Source of the DNA: Candidatus Saccharimonadales bacterium
GTDB lineage: Bacteria > Patescibacteriota > Saccharimonadia > Saccharimonadales > UBA10212
Direction of reading: 5' to 3'
NCBI GenBank assembly: GCA_040879175.1
Contig: JBBDKW010000018.1
Location: forward strand, 1 to 56,388
DNA: 56,388 nucleotides
A model generated the notes under the pieces. It did not search any database. It was not told the origin of the DNA and was given only the letters and a program-made list of their open reading frames with translations. Position 1 is the first letter of the stretch, and the number at the start of each line of letters is the position of its first letter. Positions 16,088 through 33,467 of the stretch are shown here, one piece after another. The position numbers and the translations under genes were made by a program.

Positions 16088-16525
16088 TTACTTAATTTTA
16101 TCACTTACCTTGGAGGGTCGGGCGTGGCGGTCGATTTTGGTAAAGCTGCCGCCGGCTTTTTTGAGAGCCGCTTGAGCCGCGGAGCTGGCTGCCTGTAGCT
16201 TAACGTCTTTTTTGGATTTCAAATCACCCTTCAGGACAAGTTTGACGCTGTTGTAAGGGTTACTGATCAGCCCGGCCTCGAATAATGCCTGATTATCAAG
16301 GACGGTTTTGCGAATCACCTCGAGCTGGCCGGTGTAAACAACTTCGGCTTTCGGCTTGTGGCTTTTAAAGCCCCTCAGGTGCGGCAGTCTCATATAAAGC
16401 GGCATTTGGCCGCCCTCAAACCCGGGCCGTACACCGCCGCTCTTACGCGCTCCTTGACCTTTAGTGCCCCTTCCGGACCGCTTGGCCTTGCGCTGCTTCG
16501 ATAAAACAAGCTCGTTATACTTCAT
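16088..16525 (-). CDS. rplO: 50S ribosomal protein L15
   Basis: The 145-aa ORF contains RSGRGTKGQGARKSGGVRPGFEGGQMPLYMRLP. Confidence 0.97.
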   Translation of the reverse strand: MKYNELVLSKQRKAKRSGRGTKGQGARKSGGVRPGFEGGQMPLYMRLPHLRGFKSHKPKAEVVYTGQLEVIRKTVLDNQALFEAGLISNPYNSVKLVLKGDLKSKKDVKLQAASSAAQAALKKAGGSFTKIDRHARPSKVSDKIK

Positions 16526-16526
16526 C

Positions 16527-17036
16527 CTATTTCACCTCTTTGGCGACTTTTTTAGCCGCAGAACCAGCTTTCTGGGCAGTACGGCTTACCCATTTGTCGG
16601 CTGGAACCATTGCTTGCAACGCTTCTAGAGTGGCGTAGGCCACGTTGATTCGGTTGTTGGAGCCGATAGACTTCGATAAAGCGTTCTCTATGCCGGCAAC
16701 TTCCAAAATCGAGCGGACTACTCCGCCGGCGATTAATCCGGTACCAGGTGCAGCCGGGAGGATCAGGACTTTTGCACCACCACGCTTGGCCTCGACTTCG
16801 TGCGTCAAAGTGCCCTTATAAATCGGCAGCTTGATGAGGCTCTTCTTGGCCGTATTGGTAGCCTTATTGATGGCCGCCGTGACATCGGCCCCTTTGCTAA
16901 TTCCCATACCAACCGAACCCTGGTGGTCGCCGGCGACAACCAGTGCCTGGAAGCGGAAACGCCGGCCGCCTTGGACCACTCTGGCTACACGGTTTATAAA
17001 TATCACTCTTTCGTCAAATGTCTTTTCTTCTTCCAT
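16527..17036 (-). CDS. rpsE: 30S ribosomal protein S5
   Basis: It contains INRVARVVQGGRRFRFQALVVAGD. I chose the ATG at 17036 (GGAG 4 nt upstream); the track's GTG at 17039 is an alternative. The stop abuts rplO, so no L30 gene lies between them. Confidence 0.95.
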   Translation of the reverse strand: MEEEKTFDERVIFINRVARVVQGGRRFRFQALVVAGDHQGSVGMGISKGADVTAAINKATNTAKKSLIKLPIYKGTLTHEVEAKRGGAKVLILPAAPGTGLIAGGVVRSILEVAGIENALSKSIGSNNRINVAYATLEALQAMVPADKWVSRTAQKAGSAAKKVAKEVK

Positions 17037-17146
17037 CACACTCCGCCTCCGGCTACGAGTGATTTCGGCAATTTTGTATGCTCATAGCGCTTTAGCTTAT
17101 TTTCCTTCTGTGATAGAGGCTCGAAGCCTTGTGCGTAGTGCCTCAT
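17036..17146 (-). CDS. Speculative 36-codon basic mini-ORF exactly bridging rplR and rpsE
   Basis: My own translation gives MRHYAQGFEPLSQKENKLKRYEHTKLPKSLVAGGGV. The ATG directly follows the rplR TAG, and the stop overlaps the rpsE start as TGATG. Confidence 0.2.
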   Translation of the reverse strand: MRHYAQGFEPLSQKENKLKRYEHTKLPKSLVAGGGV

Positions 17147-24345: not shown

Positions 24346-24959
24346 TACTTAGCCCCCCGCAATAAAACCAAGCCCTTTTTGGGGCCTGGTACGGCGCCTT
24401 CGACTCCTATTACGCTACTGTCCTTATCAATCAGGGCAATGCGCAAGTTCTTGGTTGTAACTTGGCTATGCCCCATATGGCCGGCCATCTTCTTGCCCGG
24501 AAAAATCCGCTGCGGATACATCGAACCAATGGAGCCCGGTCGCCTATAGCTTTGCCCGCCGTGAGTTTTTGGCCCGCGGTGAAAACCGTGCCGTTTGATA
24601 GTTCCGGCAAAGCCCTTGCCCTTACTGATTCCGGTCACATCAACCTTATCGCCGACTTCAAAAATGTCGGCGTCAATTTGGCCGCCGACATTCAGCTCGC
24701 TTAACTCTTCATCAATAATGCGGAACTCACGAGCGATCCTTGGTGTTACCTTGGCTGTCTTATAGTGGCCGGCTTGAGCCTTGCCAATCTTTTTTTGGCT
24801 TTCAGCACCAATCTGAATGGCGTTATAACCGTCTTTTTCAGTGGTTTTTATTTGGGTAACAGTGTTAGGCGAGGCGGAAAGCAAAGTCACAGCAATAGCC
24901 GCACCATCCTCTTTGAGGATGTTGGTCATACCGATTTTGCGGGTGATAAGGGCTTTCAC
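24345..24959 (-). CDS. rplC: 50S ribosomal protein L3
   Basis: The 204-aa ORF (GTG start) contains KIGMTNI and GISKGKGFAGTIKRHGFHRGPKTHG. Confidence 0.97.
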   Translation of the reverse strand: MKALITRKIGMTNILKEDGAAIAVTLLSASPNTVTQIKTTEKDGYNAIQIGAESQKKIGKAQAGHYKTAKVTPRIAREFRIIDEELSELNVGGQIDADIFEVGDKVDVTGISKGKGFAGTIKRHGFHRGPKTHGGQSYRRPGSIGSMYPQRIFPGKKMAGHMGHSQVTTKNLRIALIDKDSSVIGVEGAVPGPKKGLVLLRGAK

Positions 24960-25084
24960 CTATAATTCCTTCTGTGCTAATGCCGGTTAGTATTTTTGCC
25001 ATATTAATAGCTAGATACACCTCTATCGCTGTATCCGTAACAGATTAACACAAAGCCTTCATAAGTGTCAATTTGTTGCTAAAA

Positions 25085-25438
25085 TTACATTTTTATCTCG
25101 GCGTCGCATCCCGCGGGCAGAGACAAATTCATAAGAGCGTCGATTGTTTTTGGTGTTGGTTCAGTTATATCGATCAAGCGTTTGTGGACGCGCATTTCAA
25201 ACTGCTCGCGCCCCTTTTTATAGACATGAGGGCTTTTAATGACCGTATAGACGCTCTTTTTTATAGGCAGTGGGATTGGACCCGAAATATTAGCGCCTGT
25301 ACGCAGCGCTGTCTCAACGATCTGCTTAGCTGACTGGTCAATAACTTTATGGTCGTAAGCCTTCAAACGAATTCGAATGCGCGGCTTACCCTCTGCCTCT
25401 GTCGACTTCGATTTAGTTGTCTTTTTAGCTTCTGCCAT
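25085..25438 (-). CDS. rpsJ: 30S ribosomal protein S10 with a short Lys/Thr-rich N-terminal extension
   Basis: The 117-aa ORF contains [24 protein letters not shown]. Confidence 0.97.
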
Positions 25439-25736
25439 CTGCTCTGTTTTTTGCTAGTGCATGACGAACCGAAGCAGTTATTTCACTGCAGACTCTTTCA
25501 ATTACGATGTCGTCGGCTGACATTTTCTCGTGCAGATCTACTGCTCCCTCGACATTAGGAGGTAGTCCGTCTACGTCTGTAAGTGTGGCTACGACCTCAT
25601 CAGTTCTTACAACAATATCGCCGCCCAAGTCAATTCCTGAAGAACCATAAAATTCCATCTCTACGCCACCTCTAATGTGGATATCGAACGCTCGATTTGA
25701 TCGCGGGATGAAGGGTGGGTCTTCATTTGTTGCCAT
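25425..25736 (-). CDS. Hypothetical acidic 103-aa protein wedged between tuf and rpsJ; possible paralog of 32304..32564
   Basis: The ATG is 4 nt after the tuf stop, and the 3' end overlaps the rpsJ start by 14 nt. It shares FDIHxR...FYG...DLGG with the ORF upstream of fusA. Confidence 0.5.
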
Positions 25737-25740
25737 AGGG

Positions 25741-26922
25741 TTACTTCTCTATCTTGGTAACCACGCCGGCGCCGACGGTTTTACCGCCCTCGCGGATAGC
25801 AAATCGCAAACCCTGTTCCATTGCAATTGGCTGAAGTAAGTGAACCTTAAACGTAATAGTGTCGCCCGGCATTACCATCTCCTTGTCAGCCGGCAATTCA
25901 ACCTCACCGGTTACGTCGGTAGTTCGGAAGTAAAACTGCGGCTTGTAGCCCTTGAAGAATGGCGTGTGTCGTCCGCCTTCCTCTTTAGTCAGGATGTAAA
26001 CTTCACTCTCGAAATCGGTGTGAGGAGTAATGGAGCCCGGCTTGGCCAATACCTGACCGCGCTCGATGTCATCACGCTCTACACCTCGGAGCAATACACC
26101 GACGTTATCGCCGGCTTGACCCTGGTCAAGATTTTTTTTGAACATCTCAACTCCGGTTACGACGGTTTTCTTCGTAGGACGTAAGCCAACAATTTCAATC
26201 TCTTCATTGACTTTAACGACACCGGTCTCGATGCGGCCGGTAGCAACCGTCCCGCGCCCCTTAATGGAGAAGACGTCTTCAACGGCCAACAGAAACGGCT
26301 TGTCAAGGTCGCGCTTCGGCTCTGGAATAGACTCGTCCATCACCTTGAGCAACTCCATAACGGCTTCTTCGGCTTCTTTATCGCCTTCCAAAGCTTTGGT
26401 GGCAGAACCTTTGACAATCGGCGCGTTCTCGTCAAATTCGTATTTCTTCAAAAGTTCGCGAACGTCAGCTTCAACCAACTCTACAAGCTCGGGGTCAGCC
26501 AAATCCATCTTATTCAAAAAGACGATGATGTAAGGCACGCCAACCTGGCGGGCCAGCAGAACGTGTTCGCGCGTCTGCGGCATCGGGCCGTCAGCGGCCG
26601 AAACTACCAAGATGGCGCCATCAACCTGGGCAGCGCCGGTAATCATATTCTTTACATAGTCGGCGTGGCCGGGCATATCGATGTGGGCATAGTGACGCTT
26701 CTCGGTCTCGTATTCTTGATGCGAAACGGCAATCGTGATACCACGCTCTTTCTCTTCGGGCGCCTTGTCGATTTCTTCGAATTTAACCGGTTTGTTAATA
26801 TCGCTCGGCGATTTCTTTGACAATACGTGCGTAATCGCCGAAGTTAAGGTTGTTTTTCCGTGGTCAACGTGTCCCATAGTACCGACGTTAAGATGCGGTT
26901 TGGTTCGCTGAAATTCTGCCAT
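25741..26922 (-). CDS. tuf: Elongation factor Tu
   Basis: It starts [27 protein letters not shown] and contains DMPGHADY and NKMD. I chose the ATG at 26922 (AAGGAG 5 nt upstream); the track starts 2 codons earlier at a GTG. Confidence 0.98.
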
Positions 26923-26996
26923 TTTCACTCCTTGTTATTAAGTTTTACTGATAAATAAGCATAGGTAATAGATACCACCCACGCGAGCTAGCGCCC

Positions 26997-27026
26997 ATTA
27001 TAGAGTAATGATCAGCGCTTTGTAAA
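26997..27026 (-). promoter_or_regulatory. Candidate strong sigma70-type promoter for tuf
   Basis: Minus strand reads TTTACA (27026..27021), an 18-nt spacer, then TATAAT (27002..26997). Confidence 0.55.
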
Positions 27027-27030
27027 GAGG

Positions 27031-27363
27031 TTAGTCAGAAGTAATCTCAGACTCGGTAATGTTAACTGCTTCTTCAAGTTCATCTATTTGTGTCTTGGAA
27101 TAGCTATGGGACTCCTCCAAATCCACCTCAACAATCTCACCAGAGGCATCACGACTAATCGTAGCTGCAACCCTAGTAGCTTTCTCCTTTGCCCCATATA
27201 TAAGATCAACCAGCGTACTTTGGGATGCTTCCCAAAATGACGCATGAAATATTTTTTCGCCAATTACTTTATTGTACTTTAATCCTACGCTCCCCAGGGC
27301 AAGCGCCGTGCCAAGTAACACTACTCTTTTGAGCCTCCGCTCCTCCTCGGGACTGAATTCCAT
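27031..27363 (-). CDS. Hypothetical 110-aa protein (N-terminal hydrophobic segment, acidic C-terminus)
   Basis: The ATG abuts the GT4 stop (TAGATG). It contains VVLLGTALALGSVGL. I recognise no family. Confidence 0.5.
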   Translation of the reverse strand: MEFSPEEERRLKRVVLLGTALALGSVGLKYNKVIGEKIFHASFWEASQSTLVDLIYGAKEKATRVAATISRDASGEIVEVDLEESHSYSKTQIDELEEAVNITESEITSD

Positions 27364-28536
27364 CTAGACGCGCCCCTTTTTGGCGATTTTTATGCGCTGC
27401 TGAATTTCCCGTCGTCTAACATCTCTGGCCCAAACCGATTCCAGCTCCTTCTTGCTCTTAAGGGTTATCCGTCGGATTTTTTCTTCTTCCCTCTCCCGGA
27501 TCCGGAATATCCGTAGAACCTTTTTATAGGCCCGCCCATACTGTTTGCTCATAATCTGGTAGTTAAAGAGCCGCCTAGCCCTTCTGGCGATATATTCGCG
27601 GTCCATCGCAAAGAGTTTGTCCATCTGGTGGTAGCCCTCGACCAAATCTTCTACCAGCAGCCCGGTCCTGCCTTCGTCAATCAACTCGGGCATCGAGCCT
27701 CGGGCTATAGCCATCGTCGGCGTGCCACAATAAGCCGCCTCGAGCACCGTTAGCCCAAAAGGCTCACGGAAACCAGTGGGGTGCAAGTTTAACCTGGCCT
27801 TACTCAAAAGCTTAATAGTCTGTCTTTTGTCAATTTCTCCTAAATACTCGACCAGCGGATGGCGGAAATATTTTTTGACCTCGCCCTTAAAGTAGTCGTC
27901 TCCCAGATAGTCGATTTTGCCGGCCAGCTTTATCTTGATTCCGTAGCTTAGGGCAAGTTCGATGGCCAGATGGGGGTTCTTTTCGCGGTCGAATCGGCCA
28001 ATGAAGCAAACATAATCCTCCGGACTTTTAGTCACCGGAAATTCCTTTGGATCTTCGCCGTTATAAACCGCTCCAACCCATTGCAGATCAGGGTATGCCT
28101 CCTGCTGGTTCTTAGATATCGACACGAAGTAGAGGCCCTGCCTCTTGGCGTAATAATCAAGCTGTTGGAAAATAATCGGCCCGTGTATGGTGGTTAGGTT
28201 CGGAAAATGTTCGAATTTCCGCAAATCAAAACCGTGTGAATGGATTATGTCGATGCTCGGCAGGATTTCTTTGAGCCTTTGCGTTGTATATCTCTCTATC
28301 TGTTTCAGCTCTTTCTCAAAAGCTGGCAAACCGGCCTTAGTTCGTGGAAAAAAAATAGCCTTTTTGACGATTGGAATAAGCTCGCAGTCAACTTTCGAAT
28401 CGCCGGGGGCGAACAGCACCGGCTCGTGCCCTCTTTCTTTTAGGCCTTTTATAAGATAGGCGATCACCCTTTCGGTGCCACCGTATTTTGGCGGCGGCAC
28501 AGGAATATATGGCGCGGCGACAATGGCAACTCTCAT
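27364..28536 (-). CDS. Glycosyltransferase family 4 (GT-B fold) with a basic C-terminal tail
   Basis: The 390-aa ORF has an N-terminal PYIPVPPPKYGGTERV and the retaining-GT signature REPFGLTVLEAAYCGTP. Confidence 0.8.
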   Translation of the reverse strand: MRVAIVAAPYIPVPPPKYGGTERVIAYLIKGLKERGHEPVLFAPGDSKVDCELIPIVKKAIFFPRTKAGLPAFEKELKQIERYTTQRLKEILPSIDIIHSHGFDLRKFEHFPNLTTIHGPIIFQQLDYYAKRQGLYFVSISKNQQEAYPDLQWVGAVYNGEDPKEFPVTKSPEDYVCFIGRFDREKNPHLAIELALSYGIKIKLAGKIDYLGDDYFKGEVKKYFRHPLVEYLGEIDKRQTIKLLSKARLNLHPTGFREPFGLTVLEAAYCGTPTMAIARGSMPELIDEGRTGLLVEDLVEGYHQMDKLFAMDREYIARRARRLFNYQIMSKQYGRAYKKVLRIFRIREREEEKIRRITLKSKKELESVWARDVRRREIQQRIKIAKKGRV

Positions 28537-28539
28537 AGA

Positions 28540-30072
28540 TTAAAAATGCTCTTTCTTCAATTCATACGGGTAATCGGGGTAGCGGGCGTTTAGCGAGCGG
28601 CTGGTTTTGAAGCGCGCAACTTTGGGAATATGTATCATTACTTCTCTCTCCAGCTCTTTCTGCCAAGGCTTCTGATGGAACCTACCTAAACGAAGTCCCG
28701 GACGTCTATCGGCCGAAATAGCAAATATAGCCGATACCGTCCAAGCTTGAATGCTTTCCGGCACGTTAGTGCTTTTTACTTCAAGGGCATGTGTGTGGCG
28801 ATGAGCCCGAGAAGACGAGCCCAGTACCCGCCCCCGGGGGTCGACATACAAATACTCAGGGTACCCCCGGCTTTTACGGACAACATTAAGCAGCCGGTTC
28901 TCGAGCTGTTTGGCAAGTTCCGGAAACCCCTGCCGCCGTAACCCCTTAGCAATATCATAAGTTTCTTTTGGCCAGCTGACATATGAGCCATGGTAATCCC
29001 AAAAAGGAATCAGGTTTGCCTCTGATAGAGCCCGGCTGCGGATACCGGCATCTGTCAAAAAGTCAGTCCCCATAATGTTACGCACAACGTTGCTGACGTA
29101 CTTTTCTTTATCCGTCTGAGCCAGATCATCAAAAAACCCGCTATTGAGAAGCGATGCCGGGTTGGCGGTTGTGGTCTTTATCATTCTAAGATTACCGTTC
29201 TGATCATAGTCGCTACCTAGTGCAAAATATTTCTTATCTTTTTGCCATAAAAGCATAATGGTCTGGTCGCGCAGCTTGTGAGCTTTATGCTTCAGCTCGT
29301 TTGCCCGCTGTGGTAAATATTCCGCAGCGCCGACTAAAGCATCGTAGGCCAACCCTTGTACTTCAATCGAAGCAACCGGCCTTGAGTGGTTTACCAACCG
29401 ACCGTTTTCGTGAACGTAAAACTCATTGGAATCTTTCCACGCCTGATTTTTAATTCCCTCATCATTGTGCGCGTGGTATTCAAGTAAGCCGCTTTTGGAA
29501 CAGTCAATCTTAGCCTCCACCCAAGCCAGTGCCTCGACCATTGCGTCTAACATTGTTACAGTCTGCCCGTCGCGCCGCACAATGTCTTTCCAGAGAATTC
29601 TGGGACTGTAAAAATCGCAGTATTCGCATAGCGTACGGATAAAATGGGGCGTAGCATCGACTGAGCCGTAATAAATTAAATTCTCTTCGTCCCCACCCCA
29701 ACGCCGACTCAAATTCTCAAAGATTTCGAGAGGCCGGCCACTTAGAGCTTTATCGTCAACGACCCTGGTGCGGTACTCGTGGATGATTCTGCCGGGCTCC
29801 TCCTCATTGGCGCTGTGATGAGCCAACCCCTGCAGTCTTGCAAGAGCAAGTAATATTCGCTTAGAAAGTTGCGACCGCAGAGTCATCAAATCTTCAGCTA
29901 CCACTAGCGAATCGCGGCCAAAAACCGCCCCCCTAAATAAGGTGTCCGAGCTGGCATAAACCCCCAGGCCGCTTTTAGAGATTACGTTTCTTAGCGCTAA
30001 TATTGGCGGAATTAGCAACTTGGGCTTCCTGATGAGCTGCCCAATTGCTTTATTGATAATAACTTTCACCAT
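28540..30072 (-). CDS. Amylo-alpha-1,6-glucosidase / glycogen-debranching-enzyme C-terminal-domain-like six-hairpin glycosidase
   Basis: The 510-aa ORF carries the motifs FGRDSLV, PGRIIHE, YGSVDATPHF, NQAWKDS, EVQGLAYDA, DAGIRSRA and YHGSYVSWP. Confidence 0.75.
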   Translation of the reverse strand: MVKVIINKAIGQLIRKPKLLIPPILALRNVISKSGLGVYASSDTLFRGAVFGRDSLVVAEDLMTLRSQLSKRILLALARLQGLAHHSANEEEPGRIIHEYRTRVVDDKALSGRPLEIFENLSRRWGGDEENLIYYGSVDATPHFIRTLCEYCDFYSPRILWKDIVRRDGQTVTMLDAMVEALAWVEAKIDCSKSGLLEYHAHNDEGIKNQAWKDSNEFYVHENGRLVNHSRPVASIEVQGLAYDALVGAAEYLPQRANELKHKAHKLRDQTIMLLWQKDKKYFALGSDYDQNGNLRMIKTTTANPASLLNSGFFDDLAQTDKEKYVSNVVRNIMGTDFLTDAGIRSRALSEANLIPFWDYHGSYVSWPKETYDIAKGLRRQGFPELAKQLENRLLNVVRKSRGYPEYLYVDPRGRVLGSSSRAHRHTHALEVKSTNVPESIQAWTVSAIFAISADRRPGLRLGRFHQKPWQKELEREVMIHIPKVARFKTSRSLNARYPDYPYELKKEHF

Positions 30073-30196: not shown

Positions 30197-30226
30197 TAAT
30201 ATTACTTGACTAGTCAAGTAATATTA
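30197..30226 (-). terminator. Perfect 30-bp palindrome overlapping the fusA stop; probable terminator hairpin or operator
   Basis: The palindrome taatattacttgactagtcaagtaatatta has perfect 15-bp arms. On the minus strand it is followed by TATATTTACCATTTATC. Confidence 0.5.
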
Positions 30227-32311
30227 CTCCCCTGATTTGGCGATGATGTTTTCGGCAACATTCGGCGGCACATCGGCGTAATGGTCAAGCTCCATTGTGC
30301 TCGAAGCCCGCCCCTGGGTCATACTGCGTAGATTTGTTGTGTAACCAAACATCTCGCCCAAAGGTACGAAAGCAGTTATCTGCTTTATGCCGGGGTTTAA
30401 GTCTTCCATACTTTCAATCCGGCCGCGCTTGGAATTCAAATCGCCAATTACGTCACCCATAAAATCTTCCGGCGTGATAGCCACCAGCTTCATAATCGGT
30501 TCCAGCAACACCGGATTAGCTCTTTTAACAGCGTCTTGCAATGCGGCGCTGCCGGCGATCTTGAAGGCTACTTCTGATGAGTCGACCTCATGGTAACTGC
30601 CATCATACAACTCGACCTTAACATCAACCACCGGATATCCGGCAATCACGCCGTTAGCCATCGCCTCCTCAATTCCGGCTCTGACAGCCGGAATAAACTC
30701 AGCCGGTATGACGCCGCCTCTGATGCTGTTGATAAATTCAAAGCCTTCGCCGGCTTCGTTTTGTGAAATCCGCAGCCAGCAATGGCCATACTGGCCGCGG
30801 CCGCCGGTCTGGCGGATGTACTTTCCTTCGGCTTCGACGCCGTCTTTGCGGATGGTTTCGCGGTAAGCCACCTGTGGCTGGCCAACGTTGGCATCAACCG
30901 TGAACTCGCGCTTCATCCTATCGACGATAATCTCAAGATGCAACTCCCCCATTCCGGAAATAATCGTTTGCCCGGTCTCGTGGTCGACTTTGATTCTGAA
31001 TGTTGGATCCTCCTCAGCCAGCCTGGTGAGCGCTTGGCTCATCTTTTCCTGGTCGGCCTTAGTCTTCGGCTCGATGGCAATACTGACCGGCGGTTCGGGA
31101 AAGTGAATGCTCTCAAGCAAAATCGGTTTGTTGGCATCCGAAAGCGTGTTTCCGGTTGTCGTGCCTTTAAGGCCCACGATGGCGGCGATATCGCCGGCCT
31201 CAATTTCCGTCACATCCTCACGCTTATCGGCGTGCAGGCGAACGATGCGACCAACTCGTTCTCTTTCACCTGTCGAGCTGTTATAGACGTAACTGCCGGC
31301 AGTGATTTTGCCGGAATAAGTCCTGAAGAACACCAGTTTGCCGACAAATGGGTCGGTGGCAACCTTAAAGGCCAGTGCTGCAAACGGCTCAGACACATCC
31401 GGCTTACGCTCAACCTCTTCGCCGTTTTTCGGGTTTGCACCCCAAGTACTGCCGCGGTCTAGCGGGCTGGGCAAAAAGTCATTGATGGCATCGAGTAGCT
31501 TTTCGACGATAACGCCACGGCCATCGCCGCCGCTTACGGCAAAGAACTGACCCGATAAAACAGCTTTGCGGATAGCCAGGCGGATTTCGTCTTCGCTCAA
31601 GCTTTCTTCTCCCTCTTCGAGGTACTTCTCCAGCAAAGCATCGTCCGATTCGACAGCCGCTTCAATAAGTAGATGCCGGTAGCGTTCGGCTTTTTCTTTC
31701 ATATCATCAGGAATCTCACCCTCGACCAGCTCTTTGTCGTGATACTCGTTGTAGGTGTAGGACTTCATATTTATCAGGTTTACTACGCCTTTCACTGATT
31801 GCTCAAAGCCGATGGGCAGATGGATGGGGTGCGCTCGCCGGTTTAGACGCTGGTGGATGCTCTCGAGGCTTTTATAAAAATCGCCGCCGGTCTGATTGAT
31901 TTTGTTGATAAAACAGATGCGCGGCACATTGTATTTGTCAGCTTGGCGCCAGACGGTTTCTGACTGGCTTTCAACGCCCATCTTGCCGTCAAAAACCACT
32001 ACCGTGCCATCGAGCACCCGTAGCGACCGTTCCACCTCGACCGTAAAATCAATATGCCCGGGTGTATCGATGATGTTGATTTTATGGTCTTTCCAAAAAC
32101 AGGTTACGGCGGCGGCCGTAATGGTGATGCCGCGCTCTTTTTCCTGGGCCATCCAGTCGGTAGTAGTCTCGCCCTTATGAACTTCGCCGATTTTGTGCTT
32201 TAAGCCAGTGCGATACAAAATACCTTCGGTAGTGGTAGTTTTTCCAGCGTCAATATGAGCAATAATTCCGATGTTCCTAACCTGTTCTAATGCGTATTTC
32301 TTGTCAGCCAT
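30224..32311 (-). CDS. fusA: Elongation factor G
   Basis: The 695-aa ORF contains [25 protein letters not shown] and NKINQ. Confidence 0.98.
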
Positions 32312-32564
32312 AGCTATAAAAACTCTCTTCAGATTCTTCGAGATATGCTTCCACGGCCGCTACTACTGCCTTAGTGGGTAAGTGGTTGGGAATATAGAAC
32401 TTTCTTTCCTCGACTTGCACCCAATAGGCATGACCGCCTAGGTCCTCTAGTCCTTTATGCTCGCTTACTCTCCCCCCAAGTCCCCTATATAAAAAATCTT
32501 TATCCCTCCAATGTATGTCAAATATAAGAGGTTCTTCTTGGCCAGATGTTTCGTGGTTCCCCAT
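32304..32564 (-). CDS. Hypothetical acidic 86-aa protein wedged between rpsG and fusA; possible paralog of 25425..25736
   Basis: The ATG at 32564 is 7 nt after the rpsG stop, and the stop overlaps the fusA start (ATGGCTGA). It shares FDIHWR...LYRG...DLGG with the ORF downstream of tuf. Confidence 0.5.
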
Positions 32565-32571
32565 TACTAAA

Positions 32572-33051
32572 TTAGCTCCGGGCGAAGTGGGCGAAGGCAC
32601 GGTTAGCCTCGGCCATACGGTGGGTGTCTTCTTTTTTCTTCACTGCCGCACCACCACTGTTATAAGCGTCAACCAGCTCTGCGGCAATACGATCTTCCAT
32701 ACTCATACCTTTACGCTCGCGGGCGGCAGCCACAAACCACATTATTGCTAAGTGTTGCTGCCTCTGGCCTTTTACTTCGAAAGGAATCTGGTAATTAGCA
32801 CCGCCGACGCGCCGTGAGCGTGTCTCTAAGTGTGGTGAGATATTTTTCATCGCCTGTTCAAAGACTTCTAAAGGGTTTTGTACCTTGAGCCGGCCGGCAG
32901 CTTTTTGCATACCGTTATAAACCAACCGCTCGGCCAGTTGTTTTTTACCTTCCTGCATCACGCGGTTAATAAGCTTAGCCACGGCCGTGCTGTTATAAAT
33001 TCGGTCTGGTTCGGCCGGTCGAATAAGCGACTTGGTTACCTTTCGAGGCAT
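32572..33051 (-). CDS. rpsG: 30S ribosomal protein S7
   Basis: The 159-aa ORF contains NRVMQEGKKQLAERLVY and RRVGGANYQIPFEV. Confidence 0.98.
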   Translation of the reverse strand: MPRKVTKSLIRPAEPDRIYNSTAVAKLINRVMQEGKKQLAERLVYNGMQKAAGRLKVQNPLEVFEQAMKNISPHLETRSRRVGGANYQIPFEVKGQRQQHLAIMWFVAAARERKGMSMEDRIAAELVDAYNSGGAAVKKKEDTHRMAEANRAFAHFARS

Positions 33052-33056
33052 TGAGT

Positions 33057-33467
33057 TTATCTGCCCCTCTTGGTGCCGTATTTGCTGCGGCCCTTTTTAC
33101 GGTCTTGGACACCCTGCAAATCTAAATTACCCCTAACGATGTGGTAACGGACACCAGGAAGGTCTTTTACTCGGCCGCCGCGAACCAAAACAACAGCGTG
33201 CTCCTGCAAGTTGTGGCCTTCGCCGCCAATATAGGCCCAAACCTCCTGGCCGGTAGTTAGACGGACGCGAGCGACTTTACGCAGCGCCGAGTTTGGCTTC
33301 TTGGGAGTTTTTGTGGTAACTCGAATACAAACTCCGCGCTTAAACGGCGCGGACTTCTCGTAGCTGACAGTTTTTAGGTTATTGACCACGCGGTTCAAGG
33401 CCGGCGACGCCGACCTTTTGGCGGCCTTCTTGCGTGATTTACGGATTAACTGATTGACAGTAGGCAT
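33057..33467 (-). CDS. rpsL: 30S ribosomal protein S12
   Basis: The 136-aa ORF starts [10 protein letters not shown] and contains [17 protein letters not shown]. Confidence 0.98.

Follow-up and report, generated by a model that had tools for sequence, protein, structure and literature searches.

The junction between tuf, the gene for elongation factor EF-Tu, and rpsJ, the gene for ribosomal protein S10, is occupied by a small open reading frame (ORF) in the DNA analysed here, a 56,388-nucleotide stretch of a Candidatus Saccharimonadales genome (contig JBBDKW010000018.1 of assembly GCA_040879175.1; hereafter the window). The ORF, which we call ORF103, has 103 codons and lies on the minus strand at 25425-25736 as the middle cistron between tuf (25741-26922, minus) and rpsJ (25085-25438, minus), with rplC and onward coming next. 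A gap of four nucleotides (nt; CCCT, 25737-25740) separates the tuf stop codon (TAA, 25741-25743) from the ATG of ORF103, and at its other end ORF103 runs 14 nt into rpsJ (25425-25438), the letters that end ORF103 (...GAT GGC AGA AGC TAA) being read from the rpsJ start at 25438 as ATG GCA GAA GCT AAA. The stop codon of ORF103 is formed by the conserved codons 4-5 of rpsJ (GCT AAA) read in the +2 frame. Because its frame differs from that of tuf, ORF103 is not a read-through extension of the EF-Tu gene. An earlier note on this DNA had described a 103-codon ORF with just this gap and overlap, and its coordinates proved correct. At the upstream end of tuf, a GTG at 26928 is an artefact of mechanical ORF listing, with a Shine-Dalgarno (SD) duplex energy of +0.7 kcal/mol; an ATG at 26922, with AAGGAG at the right spacing and an energy of -7.8 kcal/mol, is therefore the more likely start.

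Comparative analysis indicates that ORF103 is a genuine gene under purifying selection and not an untranslated S10 leader. An exhaustive phmmer search with ORF103 against 1.84 billion representative proteins returned a sole full-length homologue, P0002 (106 residues, E = 1.3e-21), which BLASTP aligns with ORF103 along the full length at 49% identity (E = 3e-33). Of the 11 metagenome contigs that encode P0002 and its GTG-start twin P0006, ten carry tuf, a 131-nt spacer, the ORF and rpsJ in this order, again with a 14-nt overlap into rpsJ. All 11 encode the identical 106 residues, and the nine copies from ENA are nucleotide-identical across the ORF. From this single pair (one independent homologue), in which synonymous divergence (dS) is near saturation, we estimate proportions of nonsynonymous and synonymous differences (pN and pS) of 0.33 and 0.69 and a ratio of nonsynonymous to synonymous divergence (dN/dS) of ~0.22. 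Nucleotide identity at the three codon positions is 0.61, 0.71 and 0.45, third positions being least conserved, and the alternative frames contain 7-16 stops in the same comparison. Between the same two genomes tuf has a dN of 0.07 and rpsJ one of 0.09; ORF103 has evolved 5-6 times faster than these neighbours, yet it is clearly constrained. Conservation falls into blocks, namely RAFDI, VEM, ATLxDVxGxPPNVE and a C-terminal helix, RVCxxITASxRHxLxxNR. The earlier note had proposed that ORF103 is under selection at the protein level, and the syntenic homologue, the dN/dS ratio and the poorly conserved third positions bear this part of it out.

The same holds for the distinction from an S10 leader. 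The tuf-rpsJ interval has no match in Rfam, either at the gathering threshold or at E <= 1, and its folding z-score of +0.52 is no better than that of shuffled sequence, while the pattern of conservation is the one expected of a coding region. An NCBI record already lists ORF103 as a called protein. Its known range is narrow. A word-indexed search of 5.8 billion proteins gave nothing beyond ORF103 itself, having also missed the 49% identical homologue; a search of 40 relatives found no relatives of ORF103; a two-sequence profile run against 400 genomes of the same order added nothing more, with one chance-level match at E = 0.004; and pattern scans of genome and metagenome contigs found none or only re-found a known contig. 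The three other phmmer matches (P0003-P0005), long proteins of tandem repeats in which many weak stretches add up to the score, were set aside. Further copies of ORF103 itself (on a contig of GCA_040881225.1 and on two Logan contigs) match the window at 99.98-100% identity, so that a strain-level comparison is impossible.

We extracted the tuf-rpsJ junction from 20 relatives, six of them congeners. The gap between the two genes ranges from ~0 to 1300 nt. Counting the window, 11 gaps measure 150-360 nt, and in eight of them a single sense ORF spans 94% or more of the gap; these ORFs start 0-9 nt after the tuf stop and end at or inside the rpsJ start, and for each of the eight no more than 0.7% of shuffled spacers reach such coverage. 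The occupants are mostly unrelated to one another, an all-against-all BLASTP finding three related pairs among 20 ORFs at this junction and two at rpsG-fusA. Among the congeners, G005 (EF-Tu 97.7% identical) carries an unrelated ORF of 106 residues, others carry an ORF of 54 residues (G004), two ORFs (G003) or an ORF of 79 residues (G001), and no gap exists in G006, G002 and G014. In five of the six congeners, whose EF-Tu is 88-98% identical, the junction holds an unrelated ORF or none, and the sixth, G002, which is outside the tree described below, is also gapless. The -DGR- ending and the 14-nt overlap with rpsJ are shared by ORF103, its metagenome homologue and the unrelated ORFs of G005 and G008. 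In the window ORF103 fills the 302-nt slot entirely, with no integrase, transposase, repeat or partner gene inside. Taken together, these comparisons indicate that the tuf-rpsJ junction is a variable slot flanked by core genes, in which relatives hold different, mostly unrelated small genes or none. The search for syntenic homologues had a divided outcome: one, P0002, was found on metagenome contigs with its frame intact, and the congeners have unrelated ORFs or no ORF at all.

Two small families recur at the tuf-rpsJ junction in more than one genus, a coiled-coil-looking protein beginning MSLTAEDL... in G009 and G003 (L016 and L007; 41% identity, E = 4e-24) and a protein beginning MAxSPNQFQ... 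in G013 and G015 (L025 and L017; 71% identity, E = 7e-53). The rpsG-fusA junction is likewise variable, holding mostly unrelated and mostly acidic small ORFs that span the gap, with no ORF in G005 or G006. Many of its occupants contain four or five cysteines in CxxC-like pairs, which suggests small proteins of a zinc-ribbon-like kind, although they are not linked by BLASTP (G010, G008, G007, G003, G014, G033, G025, G002 and G012; L035, L039, L041, L044, L046, L047, L049, L055 and L040). A second group at this junction, of the form MPPLK...GEF, is found in G004, G015 and G012 (E = 7e-9 and 3e-5). The rpsJ-rplC junction is also occupied in places: a metagenome relative has an acidic ORF of 87 residues there with no Pfam match (L057:900-1163), and G004 (L078) has a Cys-rich ORF of 56 residues that overlaps the rpsJ stop by 4 nt.

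The distribution of the ORF103 family does not follow that of its neighbours. In a tree built from tuf and the C-terminus of fusA (two proteins, 695 aligned residues), the organism with the ORF103 homologue is placed not in the genus but with other genera of the family (ultrafast bootstrap 87 and 96), and the nearest congeners (G005, G004, G003 and G001) carry unrelated ORFs, in conflict with this tree. With the P0002 organism placed outside the genus, the ORF103 family would therefore either be ancestral and repeatedly replaced, or have moved between lineages. Four-fold degenerate sites of tuf are saturated even between congeners (0.41 identity), so nucleotide alignments of the spacers are uninformative as to divergence versus replacement. 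If the G005 ORF were the orthologue of ORF103, the rate ratio predicts an identity of ~90%, and no similarity is observed. From this we firmly infer replacement of the occupant at the site. Searches within the genome by blastn and tblastx found no source sequence from which ORF103 could have arisen by duplication or overprinting.

The eleventh of the homologue contigs (L057) differs from the other ten in having the 3' end of rpsG, and not tuf, upstream of the ORF103 homologue. In a comparison of L057:1-235 with L058:270-502, rpsG is joined to the homologue through a spacer of ~100 nt that is 73-83% identical to the post-tuf spacer on the other contigs, and from 30 nt before the ORF start onward the two are 97-100% identical. 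This could reflect either a repeated promoter-bearing element present after both rpsG and tuf in that organism, or a chimeric join across such a repeat.

A second small acidic ORF in the window, ORF86 (32304-32564, minus, 86 codons), lies between rpsG and fusA, starting 7 nt after the rpsG stop and overlapping the fusA start by 8 nt. The earlier note had aligned it with ORF103 and proposed that the two are paralogues, each an accessory to a neighbouring translational GTPase. ORF86 has three homologues (P0011-P0013; 69-75% identity), syntenic between rpsG and fusA, with a family dN/dS of ~0.1, and these data indicate that it is a real and conserved gene in its own right. It is separate from ORF103 and not its paralogue. 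BLASTP between the two peptides aligns 13 identities in 32 positions with 11 gap positions (E = 0.37 as a single comparison), and their Smith-Waterman score of 29, set against shuffles averaging 24.1-24.6 +/- 4.4, is reached by 14-17% of 2000 shuffles; the resemblance is therefore not significant against shuffled controls. Alignment of the two family profiles by hhalign, the check that the earlier note had suggested, gave a probability of 0.9% (E = 0.064, 15 columns). A whole-genome search with ORF103 at E <= 1 recovered only ORF103 itself, and tblastx at E <= 1 produced no cross-match between the two. The codons of the shared FDIH block do differ at third positions only, as the note had observed (TTC/TTT, GAT/GAC, ATC/ATA and CAC/CAT in ORF103 and ORF86, respectively), but these synonymous differences are not evidence of shared ancestry, because any chance match of four residues looks the same; at least one 4-mer in common with ORF103 is found in 48 of the 302 stop-to-stop ORFs of at least 60 residues in the window. 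Nor are the shared residues conserved within either family, P0002 having FDIN in place of FDIH and PPQD in place of DLGG, and the ORF86 homologues having EVGG or ELGG in place of DLGG. With every similarity test failing, the sequences indicate that ORF103 and ORF86 are unrelated.

The geometry of the locus suggests how ORF103 might be expressed. In a pattern scan of the coding strand from 24900 to 27500, the only promoter-like site was TTTACA-18-TATAAT upstream of tuf (26997-27026, minus; 11 of 12 positions matching the consensus); the scan found nothing promoter-like or terminator-like within ORF103 and nothing terminator-like between tuf and rpsJ. A terminator-like hairpin of 11 pairs (26959-26984, minus) lies between the promoter-like site and the tuf start, in the presumed tuf 5' untranslated region, and might be a tuf leader or attenuator. 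The SD duplex of tuf is strong (AAGGAG, with the energy given above), as are those of rplC, rplD and rplW (-6.2 to -9.4 kcal/mol), in contrast to those of ORF103 (-2.9 kcal/mol) and rpsJ (-2.1 kcal/mol). rpsJ also has no SD where it directly abuts tuf (G006 and G014). The +4-nt gap between tuf and ORF103, the 14-nt overlap of ORF103 with rpsJ and the weak SDs form a geometry of the termination-reinitiation kind.

We therefore infer, from sequence patterns alone, a translational relay from tuf through ORF103 to rpsJ. A single transcript of the three genes would be driven from the promoter-like site upstream of tuf; ribosomes would load at the strong tuf SD, re-initiate at ORF103 4 nt after the tuf stop, and be passed by termination-reinitiation to the rpsJ start, which lies 14 nt before the ORF103 stop. 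It is the weakness of the ORF103 and rpsJ SDs that argues for such a hand-on of ribosomes along the three genes. An insert in the slot would then be tolerated only if it is translated, or open, all the way between the tuf stop and the rpsJ start, and this need for a frame open up to rpsJ would account for the end-to-end filling of the gap by unrelated ORFs. On the simplest view, the ribosomes that translate rpsJ in this clade arrive from the preceding cistron.

ORF103 itself encodes an acidic protein (isoelectric point, pI, 4.6) of 103 residues with no signal peptide and no transmembrane or hydrophobic segment. A match to DhaM in NCBIfam (17 bits against a cut-off of 98) was rejected, as was a match to poly-ubiquitin in the PDB, which reaches significance only for tetra- and tri-ubiquitin chains (di-ubiquitin, E ~0.5) with no single stretch passing. 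Acidity is common to the occupants of these junctions: 35 of 45 junction ORFs have a pI below 5.5, compared with only 17-21% of proteins in a crude gene set of the host genome, for which the median pI is 8.7-9.3. First codon positions of ORF103 are rich in G (G1 0.47). Acidity of the slot occupants could reflect tolerance, composition or function. Because ORF103 is under purifying selection it is probably more than filler and would have a protein function of its own. A dedicated role as an EF-Tu accessory, as the earlier note had envisaged, is unlikely because close relatives with near-identical EF-Tu do without ORF103. Most likely it is a passenger rather than a general partner of EF-Tu, a dispensable, lineage-specific protein that would gain constitutive high expression from its position.

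In our judgement, then, ORF103 is quite probably a genuine gene for a small, acidic, soluble protein of narrow range that sits in the variable tuf-rpsJ slot, is coupled to its neighbours by a translational relay and is under purifying selection of its own. Several observations weigh against this view. The selection estimate comes from one pair of sequences with synonymous sites near saturation. The codon-usage score of ORF103 is best in its own frame but ranks only at the 2nd percentile when set against chunks of the same length from long genes, and its GC content at third codon positions (GC3) is 0.37, versus 0.49-0.58 in the neighbouring genes; these features fit a young or imported gene. 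Searches of Pfam, PHROG and PADLOC gave no matches, nothing significant was found in NCBIfam or the PDB, and the AlphaFold2 model of the ORF103 family, with a mean predicted local distance difference test score (pLDDT) of 46.5, is unusable, as is that of the ORF86 family (pLDDT 40.5). The relay, too, would not be shared in full by the homologue, which has a promoter-like site of its own (TTGTAC-17-TATAAT) and a GGAG SD before its GTG start, 131 nt after tuf, so that only the 3' coupling to rpsJ appears to be conserved in the family.

It is formally possible that the frame is kept open only to carry ribosomes from tuf to rpsJ and that the peptide itself has no function. The filling of the same gap by unrelated ORFs in relatives, the lack of an SD at rpsJ, the poor codon usage of ORF103 and the low-confidence structure prediction would all speak for such an arrangement. 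However, selection against stops alone would not preserve residues, and ORF103 has kept 49% identity to its homologue despite saturated synonymous sites, along with its conserved blocks and a low dN/dS; moreover, no relay is needed where tuf abuts rpsJ, as in G006 and G014, such that this explanation covers the upkeep of the frame and not its presence. We regard it as unlikely. An untranslated S10 leader, or a spacer that is open by chance, has the precedent of a regulatory leader at this junction in E. coli and could point to the same weak codon usage, but it is scarcely credible here, given that sense ORF coverage as full as that of ORF103 arises in only 0.3% of shuffled spacers, ORFs on the antisense strand account for no more than 48% of the spacer, each of the two other sense frames is broken by 8 stops, and codon-position conservation, Rfam and folding energy all speak against it, as described above.

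The proposal of the earlier note that ORF103 and ORF86 are paralogous accessories of the neighbouring GTPases can draw on real likenesses, both proteins being small, acidic and coupled at each end to core translation genes, with FDIH and DLGG in the same order in both, and with four strands followed by a helix in their low-confidence models. Both models fall below a pLDDT of 50, though, and the statistical comparisons, the lack of any genome-wide cross-match and the variability of the shared residues within each family contradict common descent. Added to this, ORF103 is lacking in congeners with EF-Tu 88-98% identical, G005 and G006 have no ORF between rpsG and fusA, and a partner of an invariant GTPase should not be so replaceable, which together make the proposal very improbable. 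A related idea is that the shared acidity is functional and that the occupants, produced in step with very basic ribosomal proteins and elongation factors, are interchangeable, charge-matched escorts or buffers for newly made ribosomal proteins, with ORF103 and ORF86 as extremely diverged members of one fold class of four strands plus a helix; this strikes us as decidedly improbable. Recent import as cargo of a mobile element or phage, for instance an anti-defence or toxin-antitoxin-type small protein landing in a permissive site, would account for the atypical GC3 and codon usage and for a patchy distribution that conflicts with the tuf and fusA tree, and small acidic proteins are typical of anti-defence genes. 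Against it, PHROG and PADLOC gave no matches, the 302-nt slot holds no integrase, repeats or partner gene, neither a second copy nor a source sequence exists in the genome, the homologue is found at this same junction of the chromosome and not on a mobile element, and the saturated dS between the copies means that any transfer was ancient. We consider such an origin decidedly improbable, and return to the reading of ORF103 as a selected gene in a variable slot.

Regions of gene turnover that are flanked by core genes and free of mobile-element genes have been described as hotspots (Oliveira, Touchon, Cury & Rocha, 2017; PMC5635113). The tuf-rpsJ slot resembles these in its conserved flanks, in content that varies among close relatives, in the absence of integrase or transposase, and in boundaries of non-homology that fall at the edges of the flanking genes. 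It differs in lying inside a tightly coupled string of translation genes and in holding single mini-genes of 50-140 codons, not multi-gene islands, that run from where one core gene stops to the start codon of its neighbour. Insertions at the same junction, where the str operon meets the S10 operon, have been published (PMC6735719, PMC8046335), and there too foreign genes have invaded the inter-operon gap; those are known metabolic genes fixed over large clades, unlike the orphan small ORFs seen here, which differ between congeners and are coupled on both sides, and here the str operon itself contains a second slot, rpsG-fusA. Taxonomically restricted or species-specific orphans in settings that resemble operons have been described from gut species, with a dN/dS of 0.25 for one family (Vakirlis & Kupczok, 2024; PMC11293555). 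Like them, ORF103 is short, lacks a family assignment, and has atypical codons and a poor predicted fold, yet it is under purifying selection; unlike them, it is not strictly species-specific, having a homologue in another genus-level lineage, and slots in ribosomal operons do not feature in that paper.

In E. coli the S10 leader, a structured untranslated RNA directly upstream of rpsJ, mediates attenuation by L4. ORF103 occupies the same position immediately upstream of rpsJ, but as a coding frame that matches nothing in Rfam and folds no better than shuffled sequence. One publication describes most such E. coli regulatory RNAs for ribosomal proteins as narrowly distributed to Gammaproteobacteria (PMC3616713). 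Termination-reinitiation coupling has been described where stop and start codons overlap or lie close together (Huber et al., 2019; PMC6728339; reviewed in PMC12548453), and the +4-nt spacing of tuf and ORF103, the 14-nt overlap of ORF103 and rpsJ and the weak downstream SDs are in keeping with it, although an overlap of 14 nt exceeds in length the ATGA and TGATG overlaps analysed in that work and the coupling proposed here is deduced from sequence. A search of the literature found no paper describing these slots. The locus differs from the published cases in a combination of traits: its mini-genes are single and acidic, their coupling runs from stop to start on either side, and slots occur within operons as well as between them.

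The remainder of the gene string, also on the minus strand, comprises rpsL (33057-33467), rpsG (32572-33051) and, beyond ORF86, fusA (30224-32311). Between fusA and tuf lies a module of a glycoside hydrolase (28540-30072, minus), a glycosyltransferase of family GT4 (27364-28536, minus) and a small ORF, ORF110 (27031-27363, minus). This module (27031-30072) is common to all six genus members examined, the window genome included, and is also present in G012, G010 and G015, the glycoside hydrolase being 54-85% identical across carriers (the comparison covers L076-L086); G008, G014 and the metagenome relative L069 lack it, and there fusA adjoins tuf. Fast-evolving homologues of ORF110 (27-47% identity) are found in G003, G004, G005, G006 and G009.

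The host genome is an assembly of 549 kb in 18 contigs, with an estimated completeness of 81%. The uL30 gene (PF00327) is absent from this 81% complete assembly, and in the window rpsE (16527-17039) abuts rplO (16088-16525); a missing uL30 with rpsE directly before rplO is a trait of the candidate phyla radiation (CPR; PMC9297842). By its small size and its lack of uL30 the host genome is of the CPR type.

The striking claim of paralogous accessories at the EF-Tu and EF-G genes does not hold, and what takes its place is of a different kind. The most conserved gene string of bacteria, rpsG-fusA-tuf-rpsJ, has junctions at which small, acidic, fast-evolving genes are swapped while still being stitched stop-to-start to their essential neighbours. 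For annotation, this means that junction ORFs of this type are real genes that should not be discarded as spurious. For gene origin, it shows at what sites and by what route new genes can establish themselves in reduced genomes, and for regulation, it bears on how translation of the S10 operon may be driven where no S10 leader exists. The swapping of such genes within the translation gene string is an odd habit of these ultra-small episymbiotic bacteria.

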